DNA of 62,107 nt from a virus. Its lineage: Duplodnaviria; Caudoviricetes. The stretch lies in the IMG/VR virus record IMGVR_UViG_3300029267_003445, positions 1 to 62,107 of that record. One strand, written 5' to 3'. Below the pieces are notes generated by a model that searched no databases, was not told the origin of the DNA, and worked only from the letters and a program-made list of their open reading frames with translations. This document shows, in pieces, positions 1,583-58,059 of the stretch (position 1 is the stretch's first letter; every line of letters begins with the position of its first letter). The translations under genes were made by a program, and so were the position numbers.

Positions 1583-2174
1583 TAGTCCTTTTGACATTGC
1601 GTTTGCAGAGAAGAGGCGGGTTGCCGTGCATAGTAAAAATATAGTCGTACTGGACGCATCTTCCCACCTTGGAGGTGACGTGGTGAGCACCTTGCGAGGG
1701 GGCGGGCATAGTGTGCATGCGGTTCAGCCCGAGCCTTGCCGGGTTGCGGGTGTCACGTGGTACCCCGCACGTCTGGAGGAGCCACATCATGCGACGGCTG
1801 CGATTGCGGAGTGGGTGGGAGATGGCCTCCTATTTGATGGAGTGTGCGCTTGTCCTACTTTTCAGGCCGCGGGCAGTCCCACGAAACTGACGTTTGCCGA
1901 TCTATCCACGCATGTGACCGCAAACGTGCTCACCCCCCTGTTGATGGTGTTGCATCTTGCGGAGTTTGAACTTCTCTATGAGGATGCGCGGGTCGTCTTT
2001 TGCGTGCCCCCTGATGAGGGTCCGGCTGTCTGCCGGGTATCCCGTGGAATGGTTGAACCGGCTGTACGGATTGCGATGGAGGCCATATCTTTTCCGTACG
2101 AGTGTCGGTTCTTCTCGGAGGTTGCACGCGCGTGCAAGTGCTTGACAGCGAATCTCGGGTGTGATAAAGTATGA
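1572..2174 (+). CDS. Degenerate short-chain dehydrogenase (Rossmann-fold)-like protein
   Basis: KNIVVLDASSHLGGDVVSTLRGGGHSV resembles the SDR N-terminal beta-alpha-beta; NVLTP and RVVF also fit. No YxxxK. Start uncertain (GTG 1572/1575 after AAGGA). Confidence 0.5.
   Translation: MVVDSPFDIAFAEKRRVAVHSKNIVVLDASSHLGGDVVSTLRGGGHSVHAVQPEPCRVAGVTWYPARLEEPHHATAAIAEWVGDGLLFDGVCACPTFQAAGSPTKLTFADLSTHVTANVLTPLLMVLHLAEFELLYEDARVVFCVPPDEGPAVCRVSRGMVEPAVRIAMEAISFPYECRFFSEVARACKCLTANLGCDKV
2122..2137. promoter_or_regulatory. Palindromic box copy 1 (TTGCACGCGCGTGCAA)
   Basis: Perfect 16-bp palindrome 4 nt upstream of a TTGACA. Confidence 0.8.
2142..2170 (+). promoter_or_regulatory. Promoter for the terminase operon
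   Basis: TTGACA-17 nt-TAAAGT with an extended -10 TGn, upstream of ATG2205. Confidence 0.65.
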
Positions 2175-2204
2175 GAATCATTTGCACCTTTACGAGATGT
2201 CCTT

Positions 2205-2879
2205 ATGTCAAAAAAAGACAAGCCATTGATGCCCCCCGTTCTCGCGGATATTCTCAAGGCGGCTGCGGAGGAGGAGAAAGAAGAGAAGGCGGCCCCGGCT
2301 GCGTGGCTGGAGGACCCCGCCGAAGACGTTTCGGTGGAGGAGCTTAAAAGGCGCGCTCGTATCTTGCACGCTCGGGGGCATTCTGTTTCTACGCTGTCGC
2401 GGGAGTTTAGCCGTTCCCAGGCTACCATCTATCGTTGGCTCCGGGAGGACCGTGAGGAGCTTGAGAAATTCATGGGCGGGGAGTCTCGTTTTTCCATCGC
2501 CATAGAGCGGTACTCTGCATTGATTCAGGAGATTGAATTTCTTACGCAGCAGATTGAGCTGATAAAGCCCGACGGGGTAATTCGATTCCGGGATGCCCGT
2601 GGAGAAAAAGAAGTGACGGCAAATAGTCCAGAGAAGTTTCTGGACTTGAAGGCGAAGCTGATAGAGTGCCGCCGTCGTTGTAAAGTGGACGCGATCAATT
2701 TGCTTATCAAGCTGGGAATCATTACGGACGACTCGGCACGGCAACGAGCGCCCGCGGGTGGGGAGCAGGGTACGGCGAAAGAACGCAAAGGGCCTCGTCG
2801 AACTAAGGAAGAAATCAGGGCAGAGATGAAGCGGTTGCAGGAGCAGATTCCCGGGCTGGAGGACGAAGACGATGAGTAA
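2205..2879 (+). CDS. Probable terminase small subunit (HTH)
   Basis: HTH-like GHSVSTLSREFSRSQATIYRWL; overlaps the start of the large terminase. Confidence 0.7.
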   Translation: MSKKDKPLMPPVLADILKAAAEEEKEEKAAPAAWLEDPAEDVSVEELKRRARILHARGHSVSTLSREFSRSQATIYRWLREDREELEKFMGGESRFSIAIERYSALIQEIEFLTQQIELIKPDGVIRFRDARGEKEVTANSPEKFLDLKAKLIECRRRCKVDAINLLIKLGIITDDSARQRAPAGGEQGTAKERKGPRRTKEEIRAEMKRLQEQIPGLEDEDDE

Positions 2880-4530
2880 GTGGGCAAGCGACGCGGAGAT
2901 GGTTGGGGTGAAGTTGCTGGAGGTGAAGAGCCAGCGATTAGATTTTGCTCGCAATGACCATATCAACACGCACGGGGATCGGTTGGACTTTTCTCGGTTT
3001 CCGCACATCAAGTCGCTTTACAGCTCCACCGCCCCGGTCATTGTTGTCCAGGGATCAACGCAGTGTCTAAAGTCGGAGTGGATGATTGTCGATCACTTGG
3101 CGATGGCGTACTCTGGCCTGTCGCTGTTTTTCGTTTTGCCGAAGTTTGAGCATCGCGGCACGTATGTCCAAAATAGAATCAATCGGTGCGTCCAGTCTGT
3201 GCCCCGGTACAAGACGGTCGTTGATGCGGGGTTCTTTGATAGCGTTGTGCTCAAGTCCTTTGGGCGCGGCGTAATTAAATATGTGGGCTCTAACGTGCTT
3301 GCCGATTTTCGGGAGCACCCGGCGGACGTGCTGTACGTGGACGAAGTGGACGAGTGCGATCAGGGAAACTTGATGTACGCTATTGACCGTCTGGGCGCTT
3401 CTCTCTACAAGTTCCAGCGATATATTGGAAATCCTACCCTGCCAAACAAGGGCATCAACGCACTTTTGAAGAAGTCGGACGGCCGGGAGTGGAACGTGCC
3501 GTGTCAGGATTGCGGGGAGGTGGCAGAGCTGGATTGGTTCCGTGTGGTAGTGGAAGACGTTACAGACGATGAGGGCACGGTTGTGTCCTATCAGTTGCGG
3601 GACAGCGAATGGGAGCCCGGATGCCGCCGCGATATTCGGTGCGTGTGTCCGCGGTGTGGAGGTACGTTGGTGAGGGATAGTCGGGATGGCGTGTGGATTG
3701 CGGCACGCCCGGAAGTGACTACGAGTGAGGGGTATCATATTTCAAAGCTATGTGCCACCATCAACCCGATTGCGGATATGTGGGTGAATTTCCAAGCGGC
3801 GCAGTCGGACCCCGGATTGCTTCAGCACTTTTTTACTTCGGAGTTGGGGCTCCCGTTTGCGGCGGTCGGTAACCGGGTGAACGAGCAGCTCTTGGATAGA
3901 TGTGTTGAGGATGGGTATAACGTTAAGATTCAACCCGACTGCGCGTTTATTGCTGCGGACCGTTCCAAGGAAGACTGTTCGATGGGCGTGGACGTGGGGG
4001 CTTCTTTTGACGTGCGTATTAGTCAGCCGGTTCGGGGTCGCCGTCGGATGCTCTTTGTCGGTAAAGTGCCCCCTCACTTGGACGCGTTGTGTGAGCTGGT
4101 AGAGCGATATAATGTGCAGAAGTGCGTCATTGACTCGATGCCCGAGACAATGGTTTCGCGGGAGTTCCAGGAGCTTGCCGGATGTGATGTGTGGATGTGT
4201 CGGTACCGCGGGGAGGGTACGGATAGGCGGCAGACGTACGATTTGAAAGACCGCATTATCAACGTAGACAGAACGGAGGCTATGGATCGCGCTTTCGCCC
4301 AATTGCGGAGGAAGAAAAATATACTGCCCGAGAACTATGCGAGCATTTTGAGCGGGCAGTGGGTGAAGGAGATGTGCGTCCCCGTTCGGCAGATTGTGGA
4401 GGATACGCGCGGGAATAGTAGGTACGAGTGGACGAAGGGTACGGACCACGCACGACATGCTGACCTATATGACATGTTGGCGGCGGATTTAATGGAAGAG
4501 TCGCTATTGGACGGTATTACAATCGCATGA
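2872..4530 (+). CDS. terL: Terminase large subunit, lambda GpA-like
   Basis: Walker A variant GSTQCLKSE, Walker B VLYVDEVDE, GNPT coupling motif, CQDC/CPRC Zn ribbon, GYHISKL, nuclease GVDVG and DH..HA. Confidence 0.92.
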   Translation: MSKWASDAEMVGVKLLEVKSQRLDFARNDHINTHGDRLDFSRFPHIKSLYSSTAPVIVVQGSTQCLKSEWMIVDHLAMAYSGLSLFFVLPKFEHRGTYVQNRINRCVQSVPRYKTVVDAGFFDSVVLKSFGRGVIKYVGSNVLADFREHPADVLYVDEVDECDQGNLMYAIDRLGASLYKFQRYIGNPTLPNKGINALLKKSDGREWNVPCQDCGEVAELDWFRVVVEDVTDDEGTVVSYQLRDSEWEPGCRRDIRCVCPRCGGTLVRDSRDGVWIAARPEVTTSEGYHISKLCATINPIADMWVNFQAAQSDPGLLQHFFTSELGLPFAAVGNRVNEQLLDRCVEDGYNVKIQPDCAFIAADRSKEDCSMGVDVGASFDVRISQPVRGRRRMLFVGKVPPHLDALCELVERYNVQKCVIDSMPETMVSREFQELAGCDVWMCRYRGEGTDRRQTYDLKDRIINVDRTEAMDRAFAQLRRKKNILPENYASILSGQWVKEMCVPVRQIVEDTRGNSRYEWTKGTDHARHADLYDMLAADLMEESLLDGITIA

Positions 4531-4549
4531 TTTTTTGAGGGAGTTGGTG

Positions 4550-6493
4550 ATGTCTCCTTTCGCAGGATACCCGGATTTTGACGCGTGTGTTGCTGACCAG
4601 AAACAGAAGGGCAAGAGTGACACGGCTGCCCGAAAGATTTGTGGGGCGCTTCAGGCGCGTGTGGAAAAGAGTGCGGAGGACGAGGAGGTACTAACGACCG
4701 GCCCCCTTGCGGACGCGCTGCGGGAGAGTGCCGTGCTCGACGGGGGCGAGGTGGTCATTTCGGAGGCGTTTATCACAGACGAGAATAAAGTGGTCAGCGC
4801 GGACGACGTGGTGCGGGCGGTGATGAAAAAATCGATGCGGGGCATCCCCTCGGATCGCGTTCATAAGGAGGCGAAGAATCTGGGGACGCTGGACGTTGCC
4901 AAAATGGTTGAAGGGTCTACGCAGAGCAAGGCGGAAATCGGTCGAAACGATTTGAAGCTGCACGAGGCGGAGTTTGTGGAGCCCCCGTACCCGCCTGAGT
5001 TGCTGAGCATGTTTTTGGAGGTGGACGAGACACATTATCGGGCATGCAAGGTCAAGGCAACGGACGCGGTAGGTCGCCCGTACACGCTGGAGCCTTCGGA
5101 GGCACCGGACGGCGGGGAATATGATCCGGCAAAGGCGGACGACAAGACGCGGAAGCTCGTGGCGGCTGAGACAAAAGTGATTCGGACATTCATTGAGGAG
5201 TGTAATGGAATCATCGGGTTTGAGGGGACATTAGCACGGGCTGCGATGGATAACGAGGCTGTCGGGTGGGCGGCGCTTGAGGTAATCCGAAATAAGAACA
5301 TGGTCGTGACGAAATTGGCACATATCCCCGCGGTACGCGTGCGCACGTTGCGGGGGTTTGTGGGGTGGGTTGAACTGGTCGGGCCGGAGAGGTACATCTA
5401 CTATCAGCCATTCGGTCACAAGGTACTGAGCAATCGAGACGCTACTCCCGGGCACAAAGACTATTACAATCCGCGGGAGGACGGGCCGTTGGATGCGAAG
5501 AAGTTGACGTGGAACATGGTGGACCGGGAAACAGGCAAGCCGACGCGGAATTTTGGTCGGGCTGCGAATGAAATTGTTTGGGTGCCCCGCCATCATGCGA
5601 ATACGATTTACTATGGTATGACGGACGCACTCCCGGCGATGGGGGACCTGCTGACAAAGGTGCACATCCGAGATTATATCCTACAATATTTTGAACATAA
5701 TACGGTTCCCCGGTACGTCGTGGTGATTGAGGGTGCTAAGCTGTCTGACTCAGTGAAGAAATTGATTTCGGAATATTTCCACACGCATGTGAAAGGCCGC
5801 GCGCACAAGACGCTGGTTGTGCCCATCCCGTCGATGAAGGGGGAGGTGAAGGTTCGGTTTGAAAAACTGGACGCGGAGCTAGAAACGTCTTCATACATGG
5901 CGACGCGGGAAACGAGCAGGGATGGAATTTTGACGGCGCACGGGGTCAGTCCCGCCATCTTGGGTATTGCTGAGAGCAGTGAGCTAGGGAGCGGCAAGGG
6001 GTTGTCGCAAGCTGAAATATACAAGGACCGTATCGTGGAGCCTTCTCAGAGGAGGTGGGCTGACGCGCTCAACCGACTATTTCGGTTGGGGCTTGGCGTG
6101 CGGGTTGTTTCGTTGAAGTTCGATCCCCTGGATATTCGGGATAGAAATATGGAGATGCTGACTCACGTTGGATACGTGGAGCATGCTATTGAAACGCTCA
6201 ACGAGGCGAGACGGGCTCTCGGCTTGGACCCGTATGAGGAGGGCGGGGACCGCGCGTTTATGCTGACCTCTTCGGGACCCATTTTTGTGGACGAGCTTAC
6301 GAAGGAGGCCAGTGCAGAGCGGCAGTCGTTGGAGGATGAAATTGACACGTTGCGTCGGGAGCAGGCGCAGTCCCGGTTGAACAGTATGCGACCCGCGGAT
6401 GCAAGTGGTAAACTACCGAAGACGCCCAAGACGCCCGCCAATCCGGTGACGCAGAAACAGACCCCCGGAAAGAAACAAGGGAAACAACAATGA
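4550..6493 (+). CDS. Portal protein with N- and C-terminal extensions
   Basis: Follows terL. IYYG.TD, YFEHNTVP, ILTAHGVSPAILG and TLNEARRALGLDP are portal-like. GAGGGAG RBS before ATG4550. Confidence 0.9.
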   Translation: MSPFAGYPDFDACVADQKQKGKSDTAARKICGALQARVEKSAEDEEVLTTGPLADALRESAVLDGGEVVISEAFITDENKVVSADDVVRAVMKKSMRGIPSDRVHKEAKNLGTLDVAKMVEGSTQSKAEIGRNDLKLHEAEFVEPPYPPELLSMFLEVDETHYRACKVKATDAVGRPYTLEPSEAPDGGEYDPAKADDKTRKLVAAETKVIRTFIEECNGIIGFEGTLARAAMDNEAVGWAALEVIRNKNMVVTKLAHIPAVRVRTLRGFVGWVELVGPERYIYYQPFGHKVLSNRDATPGHKDYYNPREDGPLDAKKLTWNMVDRETGKPTRNFGRAANEIVWVPRHHANTIYYGMTDALPAMGDLLTKVHIRDYILQYFEHNTVPRYVVVIEGAKLSDSVKKLISEYFHTHVKGRAHKTLVVPIPSMKGEVKVRFEKLDAELETSSYMATRETSRDGILTAHGVSPAILGIAESSELGSGKGLSQAEIYKDRIVEPSQRRWADALNRLFRLGLGVRVVSLKFDPLDIRDRNMEMLTHVGYVEHAIETLNEARRALGLDPYEEGGDRAFMLTSSGPIFVDELTKEASAERQSLEDEIDTLRREQAQSRLNSMRPADASGKLPKTPKTPANPVTQKQTPGKKQGKQQ

Positions 6494-7074
6494 AAGATAC
6501 AAGAAGAGAAGTAGTGGACACGGTGTTGCGTCTGGACACGTTGAAGGAGTTGCCCGGCAACGCAAATTTGCACAACGCAAGAAACAAGGCGGCAATCCGG
6601 TTCTCGCTCGAAAAGTTCGGACAGGTGGAGCCGCTCGTGGTGCAAAAGAGCACGCAACACGTTATCGGCGGCAACGGGCGTCTCGCGGTGATGCGCGAAA
6701 TGGGGTGGATCGACGCGGAGTGCAAGATTATCGACGTAGACGACGCCACGGCGCAGGCGCTAGCGCTGGCTCTAAATCGGACTAGTGAGCTGTCCGTGTG
6801 GGATAACGAACTGCTGAGCGAGACTATGTTTTCCTTGCGGGACGAGGGGTGGGACCTGACCGCGCTTGGCTGGGAGGAGCATGAGTACGAGCCTCTTTTG
6901 GCGGCGGAATGGTCCCCGCCCGAGATTGAGCCGTTGCCGGAGGCGGTGTCGGCCCCGACGAAACACGTGGTAGAGTTCACCCCGGAGCAATGGGCTGTCG
7001 TGGATTCCTATTTGCCGGGCACGGGCTCGGACGCGGAGCGAATCGTTGCCTTCTTTGGGGAGGGCGATAAGTGA
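6490..7074 (+). CDS. ParB/Srx N-terminal domain protein
   Basis: PGNANLH, SLEKFGQVEPLVV, VIGGNGRL, LALNRTSELSVWD. ATGA overlap with portal. Confidence 0.85.
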   Translation: MKDTRREVVDTVLRLDTLKELPGNANLHNARNKAAIRFSLEKFGQVEPLVVQKSTQHVIGGNGRLAVMREMGWIDAECKIIDVDDATAQALALALNRTSELSVWDNELLSETMFSLRDEGWDLTALGWEEHEYEPLLAAEWSPPEIEPLPEAVSAPTKHVVEFTPEQWAVVDSYLPGTGSDAERIVAFFGEGDK

Positions 7075-7802
7075 CCTCCATTCGTTTAGCGTACGGCGGA
7101 CCGCCCGAGGCGCTGGCGAAGGGGTTGACAGGAACACCTGAGCCCTCTTTGCTGGTGTCCTACGTTTATCTGGACATGTTTTTGAAGCAGAGGCATCGTT
7201 ATAATTTTCGTGATTGGGTGATGGACTCGGGTGCGTTCTCTGCGTTCAATAGTGGTACGGAAATCAAATTGCAAGACTATATTGACGTATGCAAGAAGTT
7301 GAAGGCCACGGACCCGAAGCTCACCCATGTTTTCAGCTTGGACGTGATTGGGGATTGGCGGGGCACGCTAAAGAATACGGAGGAGATGTGGCGACAGGGG
7401 GTGGAGGCGATTCCCACGTTTCATTTCGGAACCCCGGAAAAAGAGCTGTATAGTTTAGCGCGCGACTACCCTCGGATTGCGCTCGGCGGCATTTCTGGAA
7501 AGCACGGCAAGGAGTGGTATCGTTTTGTCGGGCAATGTTTCGCCCGGGTCTGGCCGAAGTGGATACACGGGTTCGGCGTTGGGGGAGAAAAGGAAGTCTT
7601 TTTCGTGCCCTGGTCTTCGGTGGATGCGACGAATTGGGAGTTGGGGCCGTGCAAGTTCGGCCGTTGGAAAACGTTTGGCGGGTTGTCGGTGCGCGGGGGC
7701 AAGCACAATCTTCGCGTGGAGGTGGAGTGGTGGTTGGACTTTGAGCGACGTGCTCAATACCGATGGCGTCGGGAAATGGAAACCGTGAGGAAACTGAAAT
7801 GA
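7071..7802 (+). CDS. dpdA: DpdA-like DNA 7-deazaguanine transglycosylase (TGT fold)
   Basis: MDSGAFSA, SLDVIGD, IPTFH, IALGG, IHGFG, SVDATNW. Short, lacks the tRNA-TGT Zn motif, and sits beside que genes. Confidence 0.85.
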   Translation: MTSIRLAYGGPPEALAKGLTGTPEPSLLVSYVYLDMFLKQRHRYNFRDWVMDSGAFSAFNSGTEIKLQDYIDVCKKLKATDPKLTHVFSLDVIGDWRGTLKNTEEMWRQGVEAIPTFHFGTPEKELYSLARDYPRIALGGISGKHGKEWYRFVGQCFARVWPKWIHGFGVGGEKEVFFVPWSSVDATNWELGPCKFGRWKTFGGLSVRGGKHNLRVEVEWWLDFERRAQYRWRREMETVRKLK

Positions 7803-8695
7803 CGATTGACCTAAATACACTCCCTTCGGGGGAGCGGTACGCGGATGAATACGGTGCGTGGCTGGAGGTCTGGCGGCAGATCGCTGAGGAACCCGGTGTT
7901 GTGGTGAAGAGCCCTCCGCATAGCTGGATTCCACTGGCGCGTTATTTGGGAGCAACCGTGCGGGGGAGCTTTGCGCATTTTTTGCAAGACTCGTACTATC
8001 GCAACGCGAACGAGATGTACGACCATGCGAAGGCCTACGGCCGTCAGCGGGAGTATGTGGAATCGGTGTGCACGGCTCGGCCGGAGCTGGTTGACGCGTT
8101 GTGGAAGAGCGACGTGCAATGGCAGACGGTTGATCGGGACCATACGTGGCAGCGGGAGTTCGTGTTGACGAACTATAACGGGTATTATCGACCCGAGATT
8201 TTGGAGTATATGAAAAAGCTAGAGGAGTACGTACCTCCCGCACGCGTGCGAAATTGCGTTGTGACCAGTTGTTCCGCGGATAAGCCATATCCGGCGGACG
8301 TGCATCGGGCGGTACTCGATATTCTGCCGGACGAGTCGTGGCATCTTGTTATCGCCACGGGCGTGCTCGGTGTCGTGCCTCAAGAACTCTGGGGTGTGAT
8401 GCCGTTGTACGATGCGGGCATCCCAAATAATTGGAGATGCTTTCAAAAGTGGTGTCGGTACGCGCAGCGGATAAAGTACGATAGGATTGTTGTGTACGCA
8501 GATTTTTATGCTCCCGCGGTGCACGCGGCGCTCTCCTCTGTACTGGCGGATACTGCGGTGTCCTATCCTTTACCCGTGGGCGGGCGGGCGGATTATTTGG
8601 ACCTTGCGGACGAGAGGTGGCTAAATCATTTACGGCGCGCGTTGGAGTGTAGTCCTGCGGATGCCGGTTCTTTTAAGTCGGGGATACTATTATGA
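7799..8695 (+). CDS. ArcS/DUF5591-like protein with an unassigned ~140-aa N-terminus
   Basis: [11 protein letters not shown]...H and [19 protein letters not shown] match the ArcS core (PCS.xKPY; LGxVPxEL..YD). ATGA-coupled to dpdA and queC. Confidence 0.72.
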
Positions 8696-9348
8696 AAATT
8701 GTGCTCATCTATTCCGGGGGGCTGGACTCCACGGTGTTGCTCTATTCCTATCTAGCTCAGGAGGCCGAAGTGAAGGCGCTGAGCATCAATTACGGGCAGC
8801 GACATCAGAAGGAGTTGCGCGCCGCGGGTCGCATTTGCCGGGACAACGGAGTGCCCTTTTCCATCGTGGACATTGGCGCTGTTGGCGCGTTATTGCAGTC
8901 AAGTTTGACGGATAGAAAAATAGATGTTCCCGACGGGCACTACGCGGAAGAGTCTATGAAACAGACTGTTGTGCCTAACAGAAATATGATTATGCTTTCG
9001 CTTGCAATCGGGCACGCGTGTTCTTTGAAGTACGATGCGGTCGCATACGCGGCGCACGCTGGGGATCACACAATATACCCCGATTGTCGCCCCGCATTCG
9101 TGGACGCGATGGCAGAGGCGGCGCGGTTGTGTGATTGGCACCCCGTTGAAATCGCCCGCCCGTTTATCACCAAGACAAAGGCAGACATTGCGGCGCTTGG
9201 ACATGCGCTGGACGTGCCCTTTGCGGATACGTGGTCTTGCTATAAAGGCGGGGAGCGTCATTGCGGCACGTGCGGCACGTGCGTGGAACGACGAGAGGCG
9301 TTTGAGTTGGCAAAAGTACCAGACCCAACGGAGTATGAAAATGAATAG
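8692..9348 (+). CDS. queC: 7-cyano-7-deazaguanine synthase
   Basis: SGGLDST, YGQRH, VPNRN, YPDCRP, TWSCY...HCGTCGTC. Confidence 0.98.
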
Positions 9349-9766
9349 CGTGACAGTGACAAAGCGTTTTGAGTTTGACGCGGCTCATCGATTGTATCAG
9401 CACGAGGGGGCGTGTCGGCACGTGCACGGGCATCACTACGTCGTGGAGGTAGAGGTGGCGGGGCCGTCGTTGAATTATCTTGGCATGCTCATTGATTTTG
9501 GGGAGTTGAAGCAGCGGGTGGGCGATTGGATACAAGAGCACTGGGACCACGCGACGCTTCTCAATAATGCGGACACGGTATTATTTGAGGCTTTGGAAGA
9601 GATGAATAGTACGCTTTATCTGTTTGATGGGAACCCCACGGCCGAGAAGATGGCGGTTGAGCTGTTTACACAAGTACGCGAATTGTTGAAACATACTCCC
9701 GTGGTCCCCCGGCGGGTGCGCGTGTGGGAGACACCGGACAGTTTCGCGGAGTATCGGGAGGGATAA
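9341..9766 (+). CDS. queD: 6-carboxytetrahydropterin synthase
   Basis: [32 protein letters not shown]. Start at 9335 or 9341. Confidence 0.97.
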
Positions 9767-9768
9767 TA

Positions 9769-10374
9769 GTGTCTAAAAAGTACGCCATCAGCGAGATTTT
9801 CTATTCCCTTCAGGGGGAGGGCGTACGCGCGGGAACTGCCTCGGTGTTTGTACGCTTCTCTGGATGCAATTTGCGATGTACCGTTGCGACGGAGGGGTTT
9901 GATTGTGATACGGACCACTCATGCAACCATGTCATGTCGGGGCGGGAAATTGCGGCCGAGTGCGCGAAATACATGTCGGAAGAGACGCCTCGGTGGGTGG
10001 TGTTCACGGGCGGGGAGCCTGCGATGCAGTTGGACGCGGACCTTGTTCATATCTTCCGCGCCCGGGGGTGGCATCTTGCCGTGGAAACGAATGGCTCGCT
10101 TCCGTTGCCGGAGGGGTTGGATTGGATCACCGTGAGCCCGCGGCGGCAAGCGATTCAAGTGCTCTCGGGGGTGAGTGAGGTGAAGTGCGTTGTGGGGGCG
10201 GAAGGGACACTGCCGGATGTTGGTAGATTGCGCCCGGGGTATCGTCTAATCAGTCCCGCATTCAACGGCCCGGACCCGGACCCGGCTGCGATTGCTCGAT
10301 GCGTTCAGTTAGTAAAGGAGAATCCAAAATGGCGGCTGTCAATACAGCTCCACAAGTTTCTTCACATCCAGTGA
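9769..10374 (+). CDS. queE: 7-carboxy-7-deazaguanine synthase (radical SAM)
   Basis: EIFYSLQGEG, FVRFSGCNLRC...CDT, TGGEP, ETNG, SIQLHK. Confidence 0.97.
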   Translation: MSKKYAISEIFYSLQGEGVRAGTASVFVRFSGCNLRCTVATEGFDCDTDHSCNHVMSGREIAAECAKYMSEETPRWVVFTGGEPAMQLDADLVHIFRARGWHLAVETNGSLPLPEGLDWITVSPRRQAIQVLSGVSEVKCVVGAEGTLPDVGRLRPGYRLISPAFNGPDPDPAAIARCVQLVKENPKWRLSIQLHKFLHIQ

Positions 10375-11252: not shown

Positions 11253-11253
11253 T

Positions 11254-13131: not shown

Positions 13132-13137
13132 AGGACA

Positions 13138-13317
13138 ATGACATTATTTATTTCGCTTTATGAGAATATGGTGGGCGTGCGTTGTCCCAGTCCTGGTCCC
13201 ATCAAAGCGGACACGGAGTATGAGGTCCACCCGACGCAAGTTTTCCATGGGTACTCGTACGAAGAGCTGCGAGCAATGGGCGAAGGCATGTTTGAAGTAC
13301 CCGTGAGGGAGGGCTGA
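13138..13317 (+). CDS. 59-aa ORF, candidate immunity protein
   Basis: Hand-translated (MTLFISLYENMVG...EVPVREG); AAGGA RBS; below the ORF-track cutoff. Confidence 0.6.
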   Translation: MTLFISLYENMVGVRCPSPGPIKADTEYEVHPTQVFHGYSYEELRAMGEGMFEVPVREG

Positions 13318-13318
13318 T

Positions 13319-13444: not shown

Positions 13445-13482
13445 TTCTGGCAAGCCACGCCTCCGCCTCCACTCTGGGGGGT

Positions 13483-13496
13483 TGCACGCGCGTGCA
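13483..13496. promoter_or_regulatory. Palindromic box copy 2
   Basis: TGCACGCGCGTGCA, 13 nt upstream of TTGACA. Confidence 0.8.
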
Positions 13497-13509: not shown

Positions 13510-13538
13510 TTGACACGATTTTTTGTAGGTGCGATAAT
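13510..13538 (+). promoter_or_regulatory. Promoter for the capsid operon
   Basis: TTGACA-17 nt-GATAAT with extended -10 TGC; AGGAGG RBS follows. Confidence 0.8.
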
Positions 13539-23767: not shown

Positions 23768-23783
23768 TTGCACGCACGTGCAA
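23768..23783. promoter_or_regulatory. Palindromic box copy 3 (TTGCACGCACGTGCAA)
   Basis: Fills most of a 26-nt intergenic gap. Confidence 0.8.
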
Positions 23784-31544: not shown

Positions 31545-31560
31545 TTGCACGCACGTGCAG
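31545..31560. promoter_or_regulatory. Palindromic box copy 4
   Basis: TTGCACGCACGTGCAG, intergenic. Confidence 0.8.
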
Positions 31561-33695: not shown

Positions 33696-35126
33696 ATGTC
33701 AGAAACGTTGGACGAGCAGTGGGCGGAGGCAATCCAGAGGGAGCTTGCCACCTCCAGTCTTTATCGATATGCTCCGATGCGGAGTCAGCCCCGGGGCATG
33801 CGGTTGGAGGCGGAGGGGACCATTAGCATGGGTGGCTCTGCGGAGATGCGCAAGTGGCGCGTCGAGTTGAGGGAGGCCGGGCCGACTTTATTGTTGACCA
33901 ACGCAGAGGGGCATCCCACGGCGACGCTGACGCTGGACCCGGACGGGGTCTGGTGTGGGCGAGAAGCGAGCGGTGATAAGTGTCGGTTGACGTGTATCAG
34001 TAGCAGAAGGGGGAGCTGGAAGGCACTTGCCTCCCAGCGTACTTTTTCCAGGGCAGTCGCCATCGACCCCAACGACCCCGACTTCCGATACCTTGAACCG
34101 CTCGCCCGAGGACTCGATTGGTCCGCGCAGCGGTACGACATCTGCGAAACCGAAGCCTACCAAAAAGAAAGGATGCGGTTGCCGGAAGTGACGACGGCGG
34201 TTGCCGTTGTGGGGCACGACCGTCCGACCTATTTTTCGCAGACAGTGCGAGCCCTTGCCAAGAATGCTCGCATCCACGAACTGCCCGTCTTTGTGTTTTT
34301 GGACTATACTGAAAATCAAGACGCCACGGATGAGCAAGAGGAGTTGGCGAAGGACCTGTTGCCGGGGTGCGTGGTCACTCGGCGTCCTGTGAATTTTGGT
34401 TGCGGTCGAAATATCATCGACGCGCGGCGGCAGCTCTTTGATAATCTTGGGTACGCCCGGGTCTTTGTGTTTGAGGACGACATGGTACCGGGGTCGCAGT
34501 ATTTGTTCTTTTGTGAACGCCTCTTGGATTGGGCGATGCAGAATTACGCGAATGTTGGGGCGGTTCAGGGGTGGAATTTGTGTGTGATGGGACCCGCTAC
34601 GAAGCAGACTCATTTGGCAGAGGTGCGCGGGACGTTTGCGAACTGGTGGGGGTATTTGATGCATCGGCGGGCGTGGCGATCTTTTGCGCCGTGCTTATAC
34701 CGATACGAGGACCTGTTTCTTGGGGCGGTCCGCTACAACGACCGGCCCCATCGCTCTATTCTCGATTGGTTCAAGAGGCGGGACGCGGAACCACGTACCG
34801 AACGCAACCCCGGGTTTCCGGTGGACGCGGCGTGGCGGGCTTCTTTGGAGGCACACTGGAGAAGCCCCGCCACGGGACAAGACGCGGCGACCGAGCACCT
34901 ATTTCATGCCGCGGGGTGGGTGCGACTCGCCCCCGTTGTGAACCGCGGGTTGTATATTGGGCAACGCGGCATTCACATGTCGCCGCCTCAATTTGTGCGG
35001 GATGGGTTCAGTGCTATGCAGTTAGACGAGTTTGGGGAGACTCTCACGTTTGAGCCGGTTGAACCGGGAGGGTGCACGCACGTGCAACCCTCGCCCTATC
35101 CCGGATTTCGGTACGTGGAGGCGTAA
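33696..35126 (+). CDS. GT-A glycosyltransferase (GNT-I/GT13-like) with N-terminal extension
   Basis: HDRPTYFSQTVRAL, NFGCGRNI, VFVFEDDMVP, WWG, IGQRGIH. Confidence 0.75.
   Translation: MSETLDEQWAEAIQRELATSSLYRYAPMRSQPRGMRLEAEGTISMGGSAEMRKWRVELREAGPTLLLTNAEGHPTATLTLDPDGVWCGREASGDKCRLTCISSRRGSWKALASQRTFSRAVAIDPNDPDFRYLEPLARGLDWSAQRYDICETEAYQKERMRLPEVTTAVAVVGHDRPTYFSQTVRALAKNARIHELPVFVFLDYTENQDATDEQEELAKDLLPGCVVTRRPVNFGCGRNIIDARRQLFDNLGYARVFVFEDDMVPGSQYLFFCERLLDWAMQNYANVGAVQGWNLCVMGPATKQTHLAEVRGTFANWWGYLMHRRAWRSFAPCLYRYEDLFLGAVRYNDRPHRSILDWFKRRDAEPRTERNPGFPVDAAWRASLEAHWRSPATGQDAATEHLFHAAGWVRLAPVVNRGLYIGQRGIHMSPPQFVRDGFSAMQLDEFGETLTFEPVEPGGCTHVQPSPYPGFRYVEA
35073..35086. promoter_or_regulatory. 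Palindromic box copy 5
   Basis: TGCACGCACGTGCA near the 3' end of the GT gene. Confidence 0.75.
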
Positions 35127-35785: not shown

Positions 35786-35786
35786 C

Positions 35787-42290: not shown

Positions 42291-43123
42291 ACCGGGACCT
42301 TGCAAAAGTATTTCATAGCGAGCAGGCCAAATCCCTATCGCCTACCTCTATCCTCGTGTATTGCCTGATGCTCACAGATGTATTTGCGCAATACTCCCCC
42401 GGTGCACGTGCGTGCAAGGGCTCGGGAATGCTTATCTCCGATATTGGGCGGCGGGAGCTGGAGATGCGGTGTGGCGGCGGGGAAGGGACCAGGAGGTTAC
42501 CGTATGCCCTCCGCGCATTGATTGAGGCGGGGTGGATAAAAGAGGTTTCCGGGGGTCGGTATTCTTTGGGGGAGACGAAAGACGGGTTGCAATGGTATGC
42601 TCTGGGGGAGAAGAAAACACCGCGGACTGCCGGAGCCGAGAAGGTACTTGCGGCGGCTCGTCGGGGAGCGGAGAGGCTCGCTAAGGAGGCGAAAGAAGCG
42701 CGGAAGCGGCGAGCGGCGTGGCCGCGGCGGCGAGCGGCGCGGGAGGAGTTGAAAACCCCGGCCCTTTCCGTGTTTCTGAGTCATCGTTTCCGGGAGCTGT
42801 TCGGGGCAACGTTCAAAACAACTCCCAGCGACCTACCGACTCGCAAGATGCAGAATATTTACATGCATCAATTCTCAAAATACTTGGATGAAAACGAGGA
42901 GGAGTGCGAGGCGTTCCTTGTGTGGTTCTTCACGCGATGGGACGACATCTGTACGGCATGGGGGATAGTCGGGCATCGCCCCCGGATGCGATTGCTTGCG
43001 AGTAAAAGGATGGTTCAGCAATTGCAAAAGTGGCGAACGTCTGGTTTTAAGGCGCGGGAGTCCGTTGTGGCTGATCGGGCGGATGCGGAAAAGATTACGG
43101 CGGCAAAGGACAGGGGGTGGTGA
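42287..43123 (+). CDS. Putative replication initiator (winged-helix N-terminus)
   Basis: LSPTSILVY...ALRALIEAGWIKE; upstream of DnaC-like and DnaB genes. Confidence 0.55.
   Translation: MNRDLAKVFHSEQAKSLSPTSILVYCLMLTDVFAQYSPGARACKGSGMLISDIGRRELEMRCGGGEGTRRLPYALRALIEAGWIKEVSGGRYSLGETKDGLQWYALGEKKTPRTAGAEKVLAAARRGAERLAKEAKEARKRRAAWPRRRAAREELKTPALSVFLSHRFRELFGATFKTTPSDLPTRKMQNIYMHQFSKYLDENEEECEAFLVWFFTRWDDICTAWGIVGHRPRMRLLASKRMVQQLQKWRTSGFKARESVVADRADAEKITAAKDRGW
42403..42416. promoter_or_regulatory. Palindromic box copy 6 (intragenic)
   Basis: TGCACGTGCGTGCA. Confidence 0.75.
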
Positions 43124-47872: not shown

Positions 47873-47896
47873 TACATCAAATGTCTCCTGATGTGG

Positions 47897-47936
47897 GGCG
47901 GTGTGCGTCGTATGGGGCGCACATCGCCTTTCTTTT
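47897..47936 (+). terminator. Intrinsic terminator
   Basis: GGCGGTGTGCGTC/GGCGCACATCGCC stem followed by TTTCTTTT. Confidence 0.75.
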
Positions 47937-47937
47937 C

Positions 47938-47951
47938 TGCAAGCGCGTGCA
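47938..47951. promoter_or_regulatory. Palindromic box, one-mismatch copy
   Basis: TGCAAGCGCGTGCA between the terminator and the MTase RBS. Confidence 0.6.
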
Positions 47952-50624: not shown

Positions 50625-51955
50625 GCGAATATAAAATGGATCGCTTGTTGTGGATGCCGAGGGAAGAGTGGTGCTCCGAGTATCAAGAGGCACTCACGCG
50701 GGTGGTGACGCCATACGTAGGGGAGCCGTACGAGGTGCGTTGCTGGGAGGAGGACGGGGAGTGGGTCGGCGTACCGCGGGTGTTCGGGAAGCTAGTGCCG
50801 CCGTGGTGGGCGTCGTCGGTGCCGGAGCCTGAGAAAATACCCGCGCCCCCTGTCACAATTTCGTGGCGGCGGGGGCAGAAGCCCGCTGTTGAGAAGATGC
50901 TCACTGCGTTTGCGTCGGGCGTGTCCGGGGTACGGCTGGAGGCACCCCCGGCGAGCGGAAAGACCTTGATGGCGCTTGCCGTGGCCTTTGATCGGGAGGC
51001 TCCGACGCTCGTGGTTGTGCACAAGACCGACCTCGCAAAGCAGTGGCAGGACACGGCCCGAAAGTTCTTTGGTGAGGAGGCCGGGCACGTGCAAGGAAGC
51101 AAGTGGGATTGGAAGGGGCGGCGATTTACGACGGCGCTGGCGCAGACGTTGTATTCGCGGCGGGATAAACTGCCGGAGGGGTTTCGAGAGGCGTTCGGTC
51201 TGGTGGTGTACGACGAAGGGCACCACTATCCGAGCGAGTCTTTTTCTACCGTGCTCAGCATGTTCCCGGCGCGTCGTTTGGCGGTGTCCGCGACATGGCG
51301 GCGAGCTGACGGGCTTGCCGATTTGTGGGAGTGGCATGTCGGGCGGACCGTGGTGGTGGCGGAGACAGAAAGACTGACAGGAGAGTTTGTCCATGTCCCG
51401 TGGCGGACGCCGTTCAACGATATGTGGTATACTCACGGAGGCCGGGTGAACCGTGCGCGGTTGTTGACGCTGATAGAAAAAAATGAGGCGTTTTCGACGT
51501 GGCTGGCGGAGCAATGTATCAAAGGGGTGAACGCGGGGCGGCGGGTGTTGCTGGTAAGTGATCGAATTGCGCAGCTCGCCGCGATTCATGGGCGGGCGGT
51601 GGAGCGGGGGCACTTGCCGGGTCTTTACTGTCGAAGTTTTCCGCAGAAGGGAGAAAAGAAACGGAGGCGTATCACCGAGGCGGAGTTGGCGGCCGCACGG
51701 GAACATCAAATCATACTGGCCACCTACACATTAATGATGGAGGGTACGGATGTTCCCGCATTAGATACGCTCATTTTTGGTACGCCTCGGGCGGATGTGG
51801 AGCAAGTGGTGGGGCGCATACAACGTCCATCCGCTGAGAAAAAATCACTCTTGGTCGTGGACCCCGTTTTTCAGACGCGGTACTGTAGAGCGCTTGCGGG
51901 GAAGCGGGAGGAGCAATTACTAAATCTGGGCTTTACGAAAAGGGTAAAAAGATGA
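50621..51955 (+). CDS. Superfamily 2 helicase
   Basis: APPASGKT, DEGHH, SAT, EGTDVPALD, QVVGRIQR. Confidence 0.92.
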   Translation: MSEYKMDRLLWMPREEWCSEYQEALTRVVTPYVGEPYEVRCWEEDGEWVGVPRVFGKLVPPWWASSVPEPEKIPAPPVTISWRRGQKPAVEKMLTAFASGVSGVRLEAPPASGKTLMALAVAFDREAPTLVVVHKTDLAKQWQDTARKFFGEEAGHVQGSKWDWKGRRFTTALAQTLYSRRDKLPEGFREAFGLVVYDEGHHYPSESFSTVLSMFPARRLAVSATWRRADGLADLWEWHVGRTVVVAETERLTGEFVHVPWRTPFNDMWYTHGGRVNRARLLTLIEKNEAFSTWLAEQCIKGVNAGRRVLLVSDRIAQLAAIHGRAVERGHLPGLYCRSFPQKGEKKRRRITEAELAAAREHQIILATYTLMMEGTDVPALDTLIFGTPRADVEQVVGRIQRPSAEKKSLLVVDPVFQTRYCRALAGKREEQLLNLGFTKRVKR

Positions 51956-52278
51956 GCGATACGAGTAAAGAATCTTCCGGGTGGTGTCAGGTTTCGCGGC
52001 TCTGGAAAGAGAGCGGCGTGGTTGCGCGGGAAGAGGCGGACGAGGAGTTGATTGAGGTTCCCATGGTGGTGGAGGGTGCAATGGTTGCAAACGTATCTTT
52101 CGGCAACCGCTTGACTCTCAATATGGGAAATTACGAGTCCTGTCAACTCTCGGTCGCCGTGACTATACCGTGCTATTTACCGGAACTGAATACGGCATAC
52201 AAAGCGGCAAAATCCTTTGTTGATATGAAGATGGCGGCGGAGTCCCGGGCGTTGAAAGAGTACCGTTCGTCGAAATAA
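51952..52278 (+). CDS. Hypothetical phage protein
   Basis: TLNMGNYES motif; ATGA coupling. Confidence 0.7.
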   Translation: MSDTSKESSGWCQVSRLWKESGVVAREEADEELIEVPMVVEGAMVANVSFGNRLTLNMGNYESCQLSVAVTIPCYLPELNTAYKAAKSFVDMKMAAESRALKEYRSSK

Positions 52279-55214: not shown

Positions 55215-55342
55215 AAAACCTCGATAACGACAACCGATTGTTTAGGCTGAAAGGTGCGCGCCTATCGCGTTGTGTTTTTGGCCGCGAACTTGTCGTCGCG
55301 CACTTTCATCCCGCCAACCCACGAAGGACCCCAGGCCCATGA
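55211..55342 (+). CDS. 43-aa ORF
   Basis: Hand-translated MKNLDNDNRLFRLKG...; GGAGG RBS; ATGA overlaps at both ends. Confidence 0.45.
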   Translation: MKNLDNDNRLFRLKGARLSRCVFGRELVVAHFHPANPRRTPGP

Positions 55343-56076
55343 ACGACTACACAATCGAACCCGACTACGACCACCACGGCAACCCTGACGGTTTCGTTTT
55401 ACTGTCGCTACCGCGTTCCGGGACACACATGCTCCGCACGGCATTGAACGCGCACCCTCATGTCTGGTGTTGCCATGAGGTATTCAACCGTGATGTATAC
55501 GGCAAGTTGAAACGGCGGGGCGTGGGCGTGGGCGGCAGAGACGCGCCGTGGGATGGCGAGCCGGTTGCTGTCTATTTTCATAGATTGCAGCGCGTTGGTC
55601 AGGATCGCTTCGGCGTGTGCGTGCAACCCCATCATTTTCAAAAGCGCCGGGCCGGGTTTGAGGAAATGCTGGCGATGGAGTTGCCCACTATTTTGCTGTA
55701 TCGTCTCAATACGCTTCGCCAGTACGTGTCGAGGCTGCAAGCGCGTGCAAGGGGAAAATGGGAAGCGTATCAAGGGGACCCACCCCCGCAACCGATAAAA
55801 GTAGCGGTGGAGCATGCTGCGTACGAGCAGTTTCATTACGAGCAGCGGGAGGCCGTGGCAACCCTTGCGGCGAGGTGCCCGCGGCTGATTGCTCTCACCT
55901 ACGAGGAGCTGATAGCCGATTGGGCGGGCGGTATGCGGCGGGTGTTTGCGGGCATTGGAGTCGCTCCCTGTAAAGTGGCACCGCAGACGATTAAAGTGGG
56001 TGCCGGTTTCCTGGAAAATGCCGTAGATAATTGGGCGGAAGTGGTCAAATGGGCACAACCGGGCGAGAAAATCTAA
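55339..56076 (+). CDS. Stf0-like sulfotransferase
   Basis: PAPS loop LPRSGTHML, HEVFN, LYRLNTLRQYVS, LTYEEL. Confidence 0.85.
   Translation: MNDYTIEPDYDHHGNPDGFVLLSLPRSGTHMLRTALNAHPHVWCCHEVFNRDVYGKLKRRGVGVGGRDAPWDGEPVAVYFHRLQRVGQDRFGVCVQPHHFQKRRAGFEEMLAMELPTILLYRLNTLRQYVSRLQARARGKWEAYQGDPPPQPIKVAVEHAAYEQFHYEQREAVATLAARCPRLIALTYEELIADWAGGMRRVFAGIGVAPCKVAPQTIKVGAGFLENAVDNWAEVVKWAQPGEKI
55736..55749. promoter_or_regulatory. Palindromic box, one-mismatch copy (intragenic)
   Basis: TGCAAGCGCGTGCA, same variant as at 47938. Confidence 0.55.
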
Positions 56077-56645: not shown

Positions 56646-56677
56646 ACCACAACCACCACAACACGCGAGGAGAAAAA

Positions 56678-57052: not shown

Positions 57053-57065
57053 TCAACGAGTTTCA

Positions 57066-57114: not shown

Positions 57115-57126
57115 AAGGAGTTTCAG

Positions 57127-57996
57127 ATGGTAGACGTAGCGACAACAGCGGAGCCGGAGGTTATCCCGGGGGCGTTGGTGATCCCCGAGGGCCGTGCGTT
57201 GGATATGTGGTCGGGGGTGGACTCCACGTTCGTCCCGGCCTTGCAAAAGGAAATGACGCCCGATGAGAGGCGGGAGACGGTTCGCCGGGTTGCGGTTACC
57301 GCGCAGCTCGCTGACGATACCTTGGATTTGGTATTGGGCGAGCTGCTGTACGAGGTCAACCGCAACAATTACTGGACCGACTGGGACACGCCCGGCGAAG
57401 ACGGGCCTCGCAAGTACAAAGATTTCCACGAGTATGCGGAGCTGGAACTTGGCATGAAGCGGTCCACCGCTCGCTATCGCATCCAAGTGTACGAAAAGTT
57501 CGTCATTGAACTGGACTTGGACAAGGACATATTGCGGAGCCTGGACTGGTCCAAAGGCCGATTGTTGCTGCCCGTGATCGACAAGGCAAATGCCGACGGG
57601 TTGCTCAAGAAGCTGAAGGAAATGACCTACCGCGAGGTCGCGGCAATGGTGAAAGAGATGCGGGGCCTCTCCAAGGACACGGACAGCGATGGGCTCGCTA
57701 CGCTGGTTTTCAAACTGTACCCCGAGCAATTGGAGAACGTGGAGAACGCGATCAACATTGCGAAGGGGATGGCGAAGTCCGAGAAGCCCGGGCATGCTTT
57801 GGACATGATTTGCGCCGATTTTGTTGGGTCCGCCGTGGGCTCCACCCCGGACGGTGCCCTGGTCAGTCTCGGTGTGCTGATTAAGAACATCGAGCGGGCT
57901 TACGGGGTGTCGCTGGAGGTCAAGGCGGTGGACGAGGATCGTTACGCGGAAATGCGCGAAAAGGCCGAGGGAGAAGAGGAGGGAAAAGAGGAGTAG
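57127..57996 (+). CDS. Putative HTH DNA-binding protein
   Basis: LGELLYEV...YW...YKDFHEYAELELGMKRSTARYRIQVY; strong codon bias suggests high expression. Confidence 0.6.
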   Translation: MVDVATTAEPEVIPGALVIPEGRALDMWSGVDSTFVPALQKEMTPDERRETVRRVAVTAQLADDTLDLVLGELLYEVNRNNYWTDWDTPGEDGPRKYKDFHEYAELELGMKRSTARYRIQVYEKFVIELDLDKDILRSLDWSKGRLLLPVIDKANADGLLKKLKEMTYREVAAMVKEMRGLSKDTDSDGLATLVFKLYPEQLENVENAINIAKGMAKSEKPGHALDMICADFVGSAVGSTPDGALVSLGVLIKNIERAYGVSLEVKAVDEDRYAEMREKAEGEEEGKEE

Positions 57997-58013
57997 GGGT
58001 GTTGGGGGTTGTG

Positions 58014-58045
58014 GGTCCGGGGGCTGCCCGCCCCCGGGCCTTTTT
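58014..58045 (+). terminator. Intrinsic terminator
   Basis: GGTCCGGGGGC/GCCCCCGGGCC followed by TTTTT. Confidence 0.8.
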
Positions 58046-58059
58046 GCACGCACGTGCAA
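58044..58059. promoter_or_regulatory. Palindromic box copy 7 (TTGCACGCACGTGCAA)
   Basis: Lies between the terminator and the next RBS. Confidence 0.8.

Follow-up and report, generated by a model that had tools for sequence, protein, structure and literature searches.

A dispersed palindrome in a clade of Caudoviricetes phages and its candidate ParB-like binding protein

Scattered over the IMG/VR virus record IMGVR_UViG_3300029267_003445 (Duplodnaviria; Caudoviricetes), which was analysed at its entire length of 62,107 nucleotides (nt) and is called the window below, is the palindrome TGCACG-NN-CGTGCA (window version TTGCACGCGCGTGCAA), and its repetition raises the question of which protein reads it and with what effect. 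A reading made from the letters alone, without database searches (hereafter the sequence-only reading), had proposed sites for a dimeric phage-encoded protein, and the copies do behave as DNA-level sites of that kind; as a whole, its interpretation is partly supported. We find that the palindrome is a real, clade-wide and phage-specific element, selected at the level of DNA and co-varying with gp57127, the protein encoded at 57127..57996 on the + strand. It appears likely that the palindrome is the site of some dimeric protein encoded by the phages, and structural modelling points, with moderate confidence, to gp57127 itself, in which case the nine sites of the window would be bound by homodimers of a protein with a ParB-like fold and no CTPase domain.

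The palindrome in the window and its relatives

Rescanning the window recovered every coordinate given in the sequence-only reading. Seven exact copies start at 2123, 13483, 23769, 31546, 35073, 42403 and 58045, compared with a mean of 0.01 in 100 dinucleotide shuffles, none of which reached 7; allowing one mismatch adds the copies at 47938 and 55736, each TGCAAG..CGTGCA, and gives 9 against a shuffle mean of 0.22 (0 of 100 shuffles reached 9), so the enrichment over a shuffled genome that had been predicted is borne out. The 48 places that match the motif with at most three mismatches divide into 7 exact ones, 2 with one mismatch, 4 with two and 35 with three, which is a sharp break, and all nine occurrences of TGCA-N6-TGCA in the window are the palindrome motif. 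The central pair is CG in four copies, CA in four and TG in one, and an outer T...A lengthens the palindrome by one base per side, to 16 bp.

The positions of the copies were examined against open reading frames (ORFs), whose borders, here and below, come from a crude gene caller. Site 1 (TGCACGCGCGTGCA, 2123..2136) precedes the TerS start by 68 nt and the −35 hexamer of a sigma-70-like promoter (TTGACA-17-TAAAGT with TG, 10/12; 2142..2170, + strand) by 5 nt. Site 2 (TGCACGCGCGTGCA, 13483..13496), in a slot also used in the relatives G009 and G020, is followed after 13 nt by the −35 hexamer of another such promoter (TTGACA-17-GATAAT with TG, 11/12; 13510..13538, + strand) and after 66 nt by ORF 13563; two copies therefore do stand just upstream of TTGACA promoters, as the sequence-only reading had it. 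Its placing of copies in short intergenic gaps is likewise correct, in that site 3 (TGCACGCACGTGCA, 23769..23782) takes up the 26 nt that separate the head-tail adaptor gene from ORF 23791, and site 4 (TGCACGCACGTGCA, 31546..31559) lies in the 30-nt gap between ORF 31144-31542 and ORF 31573-32097. Two copies do lie right behind putative terminators. Site 7, a one-mismatch copy (TGCAAGCGCGTGCA, 47938..47951), follows a terminator-like hairpin of 15 pairs with a T-run (47895..47930, + strand) that ends 7 nt before it, and stands 14 nt before the likely methylase start at 47966; its counterpart is a G019 site in the gap between the genes for the single-strand-binding protein (SSB) and PolA, projected about 8 nt off by an extrapolation of 231 nt past the nearest alignment. 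Site 9 (TGCACGCACGTGCA, 58045..58058) is found 48 nt after the gp57127 stop, behind a terminator-like GC hairpin with a T-run (58026..58039, + strand) that ends 5 nt before it, and 17 nt before ORF 58076, in a slot common to G009, G004, G006, G019 and G003. As no T-run follows the palindrome, it does not itself read as an intrinsic terminator; the hairpins that precede 47938 and 58045 are separate from it.

The description of three further copies as deep in coding sequence was too strong. Site 5 (TGCACGCACGTGCA, 35073..35086) falls in the last 54 nt of ORF 33696-35126, 40 nt before its stop and 41 nt before the start at 35128, and site 6 (TGCACGTGCGTGCA, 42403..42416) is either within the 5′ end of the first replication-module gene or before that gene, for which the caller's start is 42464. 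Only site 8, the other one-mismatch copy (TGCAAGCGCGTGCA, 55736..55749), is inside a called ORF (55339-56076), and there a Shine-Dalgarno sequence and an ATG follow, the ATG at 55758, 8 nt later. A site of G009 projects onto the slot of site 6 and, by our reading of homologous ORF positions, so do site 220 of G018 and site 10053 of G010. In total, 6 of the 9 window sites are intergenic, and the distance to a downstream start codon that we judge plausible is 8-68 nt for all nine.

Conservation in relatives, which the sequence-only reading had expected, failed for the window version and held for a palindrome of the same layout. The window pattern at up to two mismatches was found in none of three records of contigs collected through TerL and PolA, but a blind palindrome scan of these contigs showed them to be rich in TGCAA-N4-TTGCA, and a scan of IMG/VR for TGCAAACGTTTGCA, the commonest version among the relatives, which are uncultured siphophages, retrieved numerous multi-copy contigs. 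Counts of TGCA-N6-TGCA are 9 in the window (G000, 62 kb), 15 in G003 (62 kb), 16 in G004 (46 kb), 24 in G006 (98 kb), 21 in G007 (66 kb), 27 in G008 (85 kb), 50 in G009 (102 kb), 9 in G010 (22 kb), 10 in G011 (27 kb), 5 in G001 (10 kb), 7 in G002 (11 kb), 4 in G005 (58 kb), 6 in G012 (40 kb) and 6 in G013 (37 kb), while a control pattern (reversed, non-complemented) gives 0-2 per record. By tblastn, G001-G004, G007 and G009-G011 are clear relatives, with capsids 60-74% and TerL 45-59% identical to those of the window; the capsids of the distant records G006, G008 and G013 are 21-26% identical. The same motif persists across genomes of 43-57% GC and is therefore not a by-product of composition.

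Three further relatives were found through gp57127: G019 has 38 copies of the TGCAAWCGWTTGCA type, G020 has 21 copies of a mixed version with A or C at position 5, and G018, the closest long relative, whose replication proteins are 46-67% identical to those of the window, has 7 exact copies of CCGCACACGTGTGCGG, with no TGCA-N6-TGCA and no copies at one or two mismatches. Across the clade the half-site takes the versions TGCAA, TGCAC, CGCAC and TCCAA, and it has switched several times. The one-mismatch copies of the window, which keep the ancestral A in one half-site, and the tolerance of A or C in G020 look like intermediates. Elsewhere in IMG/VR the exact version of the window does not rise above background, with 63 stretches, of which 60 have a single copy and 3 have two lying close together. 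A search of the accessible literature text for the motif strings found no report of them and one unrelated match.

Several of these relatives offer observations of their own. G018 (L243-L244) carries, beside the main motif, a second repeated palindrome, AGCCGATACCGGCT, present three times in the 20.8-kb locus L263. G004 (L144-L146) and G007 (L140-L143) have sites at matching positions at both of their ends and are apparently overlapping parts of a single phage genome of ~84 kb. The TerL ORF of G009 (L125:16143-18752) encodes 869 aa, with a long N-terminal extension that is absent in all homologues and contains one palindrome; the extension may be an intein or a fused domain.

gp57127 as candidate binder, and rival explanations

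Clustering the ORFs of 14 records revealed a conserved replication core and singled out the gp57127 family. The protein of the window has 289 aa, belongs to phrog_17202 and combines a predicted ParB/Spo0J/Noc/KorB-like DNA-binding domain (about residues 42-182) with a helical C-terminal part; to the eye, the middle of the protein resembles a ParB-type helix-turn-helix (HTH). A profile of the family finds a member in 9 of the 9 clade records that cover the region (G000, G003, G004, G006, G008 with E 8e-10, G009, G018, G019 and G020). The AlphaFold2 model has a mean predicted local distance difference test score (pLDDT) of 69, with blocks of residues 41-180 at 77-92 and low confidence for residues 1-41, and the homologues have unrelated low-complexity N-termini. 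Foldseek ranks 1-12 for this model are all ParB/Noc/Spo0J (E 0.03-0.17). In VIA-align the best match is Spo0J bound to parS (4umk_D; Z 10.4, root-mean-square deviation (rmsd) 3.0, 114 residues aligned), followed by Caulobacter ParB (Z 9.2), Thermus Spo0J (Z 8.7) and site-bound Noc (Z 8.6); the top 15 comprise 12 ParB/Spo0J/Noc chains and 3 of Raf1 (Z 7.4-8.5), and the next row has Z 4.0. When the search was made independently of Foldseek, nine of 48,161 chains reached Z 5, namely, four Raf1, ParB, Spo0J, two KorB and one unrelated. On the strength of these models, gp57127 is predicted to have an HTH DNA-binding domain with a ParB-type helical extension. No ParB_N match at E up to 1 was obtained for gp57127 or for any of 38 family members, and none of 37 database homologues has a ParB-related Pfam domain, 36 of them having no domain and one only PF14528.

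Homodimer prediction for gp57127 gave 0.76, compared with 0.00 for the best control, with at least 69% contact agreement between runs and a partner pLDDT of at least 70. The mark used is reached by 20 of 30 proteins whose solved structures are same-chain pairs and by 1 of 23 whose solved structures are single chains; since ParB dimers are already among the solved structures, the result may partly reflect likeness to them.

Sites recur close to the gene in all nine records. In the window a site lies 48 nt after the stop, and sites lie 21 nt after the homologous gene in G006, 185 nt after it in G004, 222 nt after it in G003, 42 nt before and 28 nt after it in G009, and 15 nt before and 230 nt after it in G019. 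A site precedes the start by ~110 nt in G008 and by up to 460 nt in G018, and these two sites stand 18 and 11 nt, respectively, ahead of a −35 hexamer; in G020 the distance is 347 nt before the gene.

Alignment of the predicted HTH and the following helix, set beside the motifs of the same contigs, shows the two varying together. Half-site TGCAA goes with helices ..RKAxY[LMF]..WSKAKE.. (G003, G004, G006, G009, G019, L256 with 2 copies in 2.1 kb and L259 with 5 in 7 kb), and TGCACG with RSTARYR..WSKGRLL (the window and L253). L253 is a 1.8-kb metagenome contig whose protein is 76% identical to gp57127 and which holds the window version TGCACGCGCGTGCA. CGCAC goes with RRKAEYLI..WTKAREL (G018 and L255, the latter with one copy that has an extra central base), and TCCAA with KS[TK]AHYLKKIY (L258 with 4 copies in 6.5 kb and L257 with 1 copy just before the gene). 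Judged by these alignments, this is the pattern that a specificity determinant should show. Taken together, the fold, the predicted homodimer, the universal presence, the nearby site and the co-variation of the helices make ORF 57127 the best of the three binders that had been suggested, the other two being TerS and the ParB-like protein at 6490.

A number of observations weigh against gp57127 as the binder, or against a simple form of that reading. Its likeness to ParB rests on a model of middling confidence and has no counterpart at the level of sequence homology, because no Pfam match above noise, no PDB match at E up to 10 and no ParB match with a 38-sequence profile was obtained. Raf1, which is not DNA-binding, scores as high as ParB against the model, and a Z near 10 between helical domains can be a common arrangement. 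The co-variation of motif and helices follows phylogeny, amounts to ~3-4 events and would be shown by any other gene of these genomes as well; moreover, the helices of G020 are of the TGCAA class and its half-site is mixed, with A or C at position 5, so that helix classes do not fully predict the motif. Asymmetric copies in G020 (L245-L249) number, by our count, 11 of TGCAA....GTGCA and none of the reverse, and those of the window are oriented 6:1, neither of which a simple symmetric homodimer predicts; these ratios hint that the element may work in a polar way in some lineages. Among the seven strongest promoter-like sites of the window only two adjoin a palindrome, so there must be more to its function than promoter control. 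The records G005 and G012 each have five exact canonical cores and almost no genes in common with the clade, and BLASTP, phmmer, two HMMs and hhalign found neither a gp57127 homologue nor a shared binder in G005, G012 and G013; the cores of G005 and G012 reflect either an undetected analogue, the exploitation of the protein of other phages, or another binder. Finally, the window is estimated to be ~60% complete, and other DNA-binding proteins of the phage would therefore be unseen.

A serious, though clearly less probable, alternative is that another phage protein binds the sites and gp57127 is a bystander that co-varies by ancestry. TerS (2205-2879) has weak HTH matches and site 1 upstream of its gene, ParB_N proteins are encoded beside TerS in G001, G002, G003, G006 and G009, the early region of G009 encodes at least three further HTH proteins that are not in the window, and the 40% of the genome not seen could hold a regulator; the core motif without gp57127 in G005 and G012 fits such a binder as well. 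Yet the ParB_N family profile finds no member in G007 or G008, and a Pfam scan of 104 ORFs of G008 (89% complete) and 24 of G007 gave the same result, while the ParB-like protein 6490 of the window is of a different subfamily and lies in a window-specific island. G006 and G008 fall outside the GpA-type TerL and TerS clusters of the clade and still have the motif. Another candidate, the small protein encoded at 51952-52278, which is located between helicase and RecA in all replication modules, has a model (pLDDT 82) of four long strands and one long helix that gave no meaningful match, and no DNA-binding match, in the PDB. No second family is universally present, has a DNA-binding fold and also has a site close to its gene. 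The SSB-like protein 47195-47872 was rejected as a binder by eye, on account of its Zn-finger pattern and its acidic, aromatic-ended tail.

Whether the palindrome could instead be read by a host factor that the phages recruit (a global regulator or an SOS repressor, for example), with versions that track the hosts, was judged from its distribution in phage and host DNA. The sharing of one 14-bp core by G005, G012 and the main clade, with almost no common genes, would suit a host factor, as would the Fibrobacter LexA-box consensus, which we take to have the 5-N4-5 layout and to fit the window version (a string search returned no confirming paper). G005 is a provirus, and its TerL matches part of an Anaerolineales metagenome-assembled genome (MAG) at 100% identity. 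In this MAG of ~8 Mb all five copies with at most one mismatch are on a single 87.9-kb prophage contig, four within the called provirus and the fifth ~900 nt past its called end, between a 225-aa ORF and a serine integrase. For the canonical version, the one scored in the host-genome search that the sequence-only reading had called for, no copy lies outside the prophage contig of this MAG. A host regulator would have chromosomal targets, and their absence counts against this explanation. Three other Anaerolineae/Ardenticatenia MAGs have 1, 4 and 1 one-mismatch copies compared with 1, 2 and 0 for reversed-pattern controls, the flanks differ among phage groups (ATC..GAT versus TTT..AAA), and the motif versions follow the helices of the phage protein; a host binder is accordingly unlikely. 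The hosts of the clade are probably Chloroflexota, because one unrelated prophage carries the same core motif, which is the sole host evidence.

That prophage has some features of its own. In G005 (L170-L173, G014:C30) the palindrome is extended to 20-22 bp, the prophage ends beside rpmG-secE-nusG, and its cargo includes the serine integrase, prokaryotic ubiquitin-like, E2-like and JAB proteins, an FtsK-like ATPase and two DNA methylases. The 225-aa ORF by the integrase-proximal site had no usable Atlas match.

We consider it quite improbable that the element acts in RNA, as a short gene-junction hairpin for mRNA processing, stability or translation control. Of 196 copies, 87 have a start codon within 100 nt downstream, compared with 15% of random positions; many are 0-6 nt past a stop codon and 8-20 nt ahead of a start, and the exact copies can form 6-bp stems with 4-nt loops of −6.6 to −15.2 kcal/mol (6-nt flanks included), all of which a hairpin would explain. 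However, the canonical version folds weakly (−4.8), the one-mismatch copies have −3.0 and −3.8, the stem sequence is invariant among copies with no co-variation, and no Rfam match was found in the window. The flanks in the logo are symmetric (TT...AA) with no one-sided extension, and copies that are not self-complementary show no strand bias (18:18 in G019 and 7:8 in G003). As a sign of selection on the DNA itself, 99 of the 196 copies are fully intergenic, while non-coding DNA makes up 9.0%. About half of the copies are inside genes, where they use all three reading frames (CKRLH, VQTxA and xANVCx), which means that the protein sequence is bent to carry the site. The spacing, too, disregards gene borders. 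In each of the seven genomes tested it is more even than chance, with coefficients of variation of 0.44-0.70, compared with 0.91-0.98 for random placement, and a fraction of 0.0000-0.055 (0.010 for the window) of random placements equals or exceeds the evenness observed. Neighbouring sites are 2-11 kb apart in the window and 2-5 kb apart in the relatives. Even spacing and copies inside genes fit genome organisation or roadblocks better than a simple operator, a preference already expressed in the sequence-only reading.

Positions are also kept between genomes. When sites were projected onto window coordinates through protein alignments, 29 cross-genome pairs were at most 15 nt apart, compared with 2.7 expected, and none of 1000 permutations reached 29; the permutation ignores the intergenic preference, so this excess is somewhat overstated. 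Five of the 9 window sites have a site of a relative within 60 nt (P 0.002). Several shared slots fall inside genes, and the same slot can hold different versions of the motif, as at the 5′ end of PolA (G010, G018 and G020, with three versions), in the exonuclease gene (G003, G009, G019 and G018), in the AAA5/vWA gap (G018, G009 and G020) and after the adaptor gene, where site 3 of the window has orthologous counterparts in G009, G011 and G007. A small mobile palindromic insert (REP/MITE-like) or a base-composition by-product would account for a short, dispersed, palindromic element often found at gene ends, but is hardly credible, because by our reading, near-duplicate genomes included, 21 of the 23 copies located within conserved genes have homologous residues, not gaps, opposite them in the alignments, that is, they arose by substitution in aligned columns, which together with the use of three frames excludes insertion, and because the shuffles and the constancy over 43-57% GC noted above exclude composition.

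We infer both that gp57127 binds the palindrome and what this binding would do. With gp57127 as the binder, one dimer would occupy each 16-bp palindrome, with one HTH per half-site (T)TGCACG, and the sites together would make up an evenly spaced genome-wide array. At sites abutting promoters the bound dimer would set the activity of the TerS operon, of the head operon and, in relatives, of its own promoter; at gene junctions and inside genes it might act as an anchor that bridges or organises DNA, or as a roadblock or silencer, in the manner of KorB operators or Noc sites and without a CTP-driven clamp. A more speculative version, which we regard as rather improbable, is that the CTPase-less ParB-fold protein and its array form a phage 'chromosome-marking' system whose code was rewritten at least three to four times in concert at kept slots. 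The switch of the window to a G/C-rich half-site coincides with the DpdA island described below, so the protein may have re-adapted to modified DNA, and the array may mark phage DNA as self or organise replication or packaging rather than regulate promoters.

Gene content of the window and the ParB-like/DpdA island

The gp57127 sequence of the window is itself recorded on six contigs, the longest of 98,020 bp, and the full genome of the phage is therefore probably near 98 kb. All called genes are on the + strand, and GC skew is positive throughout. By Pfam and PHROGs, from which gene names were taken, TerS is followed by a GpA-type TerL (start 2872), a portal (start 4535), a MuF-like protein (11185-13131), the capsid (start 15192) and a tape measure (start 27650), and the replication genes encode a DnaC-like loader, DnaB, primase, PolA, an SF2 helicase, RecA, a resolvase and a Cas4-like exonuclease; an AAA5 ATPase starts at 58889. 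The C-terminal part of the MuF-like protein has a sub-threshold match to a Pfam lethal-factor-type domain (E 1.3e-4, 22.2 bits compared with a cut-off of 27.4). No DNA match to cultured relatives was found for the first 20 kb of the window, and its capsid is less than 28% identical to that of any phage record. Scans of 68 window ORFs and 150 G009 ORFs found no ParA/CbiA-type family, with the window ~60% complete, and no integrase or repressor was found in the window or G009.

The 225-aa protein 47195-47872 is conserved and, like its homologues, shows a CxxC...C pattern and an acidic tail whose last residue is Y or F; judged by eye from these features, it resembles phage single-strand-binding proteins of the gp32 type. 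Between its gene and PolA is inserted an N6/N4 DNA methylase (47966-48766, + strand; 47966 is the probable start) that is confined to the phage of the window, with a weak match in the unrelated prophage G005. Several glycosyltransferases, one of them directly 3′ of the capsid gene, a phosphoheptose isomerase and a sulfotransferase-like ORF are encoded at 16311-17474, 35405-37610, 43117-43851 and 55270-56076, and relatives additionally encode epimerase, aminotransferase and APS kinase genes. G007 encodes a sigma-70-family protein (L142:12102-12590).

Between portal and MuF lies a block for 7-deazaguanine DNA modification (6490-11252) on the + strand, with a ParB-like nuclease-domain protein (start 6490), a DpdA-like pair (7071 and 7763) and QueC, QueD, QueE and FolE (8692-11252). 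The sequence-only reading had entertained loading of a ParB–DpdA machinery at the palindromes, and this idea was rejected, as the island is window-specific and site-free. By tblastn, 6490-11252 has no match in 13 other motif-bearing records, 9 of them clear relatives, or in G018-G020; G019 has ~290 nt between portal and MuF, at the place of the island; and the longest site-free stretch of the window (2123-13483) encloses it. Because it lacks a counterpart in these 16 records, is replaced by so short a spacer in G019 and falls within that stretch, the island is, as far as sequence comparison goes, best taken as a recent insertion unconnected with the palindrome array.

Comparison with known systems

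Unlike ParABS systems, the array has no ParA-type partner among the ORFs scanned in the window and G009, and its sites are dispersed evenly rather than clustered. The stoperators of Cluster A mycobacteriophages (L5) and the inverted repeats of phiC31 are many repressor sites spread genome-wide, mostly in short intergenic gaps and beyond a classical operator. Stoperators are asymmetric and strictly oriented with transcription, and both L5 and phiC31 are temperate systems with known repressors, whereas the element described here is palindromic, has equal or near-equal orientations in G019 and G003, is intragenic in half of its copies and occurs in phages such as those of the window and G009, in which no integrase or repressor was found.

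Noc, the nucleoid occlusion protein of Bacillus, offers a closer likeness, since its ParB-fold domain recognises a palindrome of ~14-16 bp that the chromosome has in tens of dispersed copies, and the Noc domain with its site (6y93_B) aligns with the gp57127 model at Z 8.6 and rmsd 3.0 over 112 residues. However, Noc requires a CTPase domain and a membrane-binding N-terminus, neither of which is seen in gp57127, and it is a host chromosomal system.

In mechanism the closest analogue appears to be KorB with its operators (OB) on the IncP plasmid RK2, where a DNA-binding domain of the ParB family also acts on a short palindrome. There are 12 KorB operators, which fall into classes. The KorB domain with its operator (1r71_A) aligns with the gp57127 model at Z 6.7 and rmsd 3.3 over 107 residues. 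According to one account, KorB sites are dispersed over a replicon of ~60 kb, some by promoters and some distant from them, and KorB is a global repressor with a CTP-binding N-terminal domain that forms a sliding clamp and is assisted by KorA (PMC11790492). By contrast, gp57127 has no CTP-binding domain by Pfam, no ParA/KorA-like partner among 68 window ORFs and no relation to KorB at the level of sequence, and the replicon is a phage, not a plasmid.

As a phenomenon, the closest published parallel seems to be the 17-bp palindrome of Cluster O mycobacteriophages (Corndog and relatives). Its description gives more than 30 invariant inverted repeats, 5′-TGTTCGGNNNCCGAACA, in a siphophage genome of ~70 kb; Corndog has 34 repeats, 14 of them between ORFs, 10 close to 5′ ends and 10 intragenic, and positions are mostly kept in relatives, while the host genome has none (PMC4351075). 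Its authors suggest sites of a dimeric protein and consider promoter control unlikely, and they report no binder or function (PMC4351075). The two elements differ in layout (5-N4-5 here and 7-N3-7 there) and in sequence, the hosts and phages are unrelated, and in our case there are a candidate binder and several versions at shared positions, whereas one version is described for Cluster O. Dispersed invariant palindromes are known in a few phage groups, and here a candidate binder, dozens of genomes and several apparent natural swaps of specificity, with whole sets of sites altered in sequence at kept positions, come together, which makes two questions testable: what role such an array has in lytic phages, and how a DNA-binding protein co-evolves with tens of sites without loss of function. 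If gp57127 is indeed the binder, the theme of ParB, KorB and Noc, a palindrome array over a replicon, would extend to a protein without a CTP switch.

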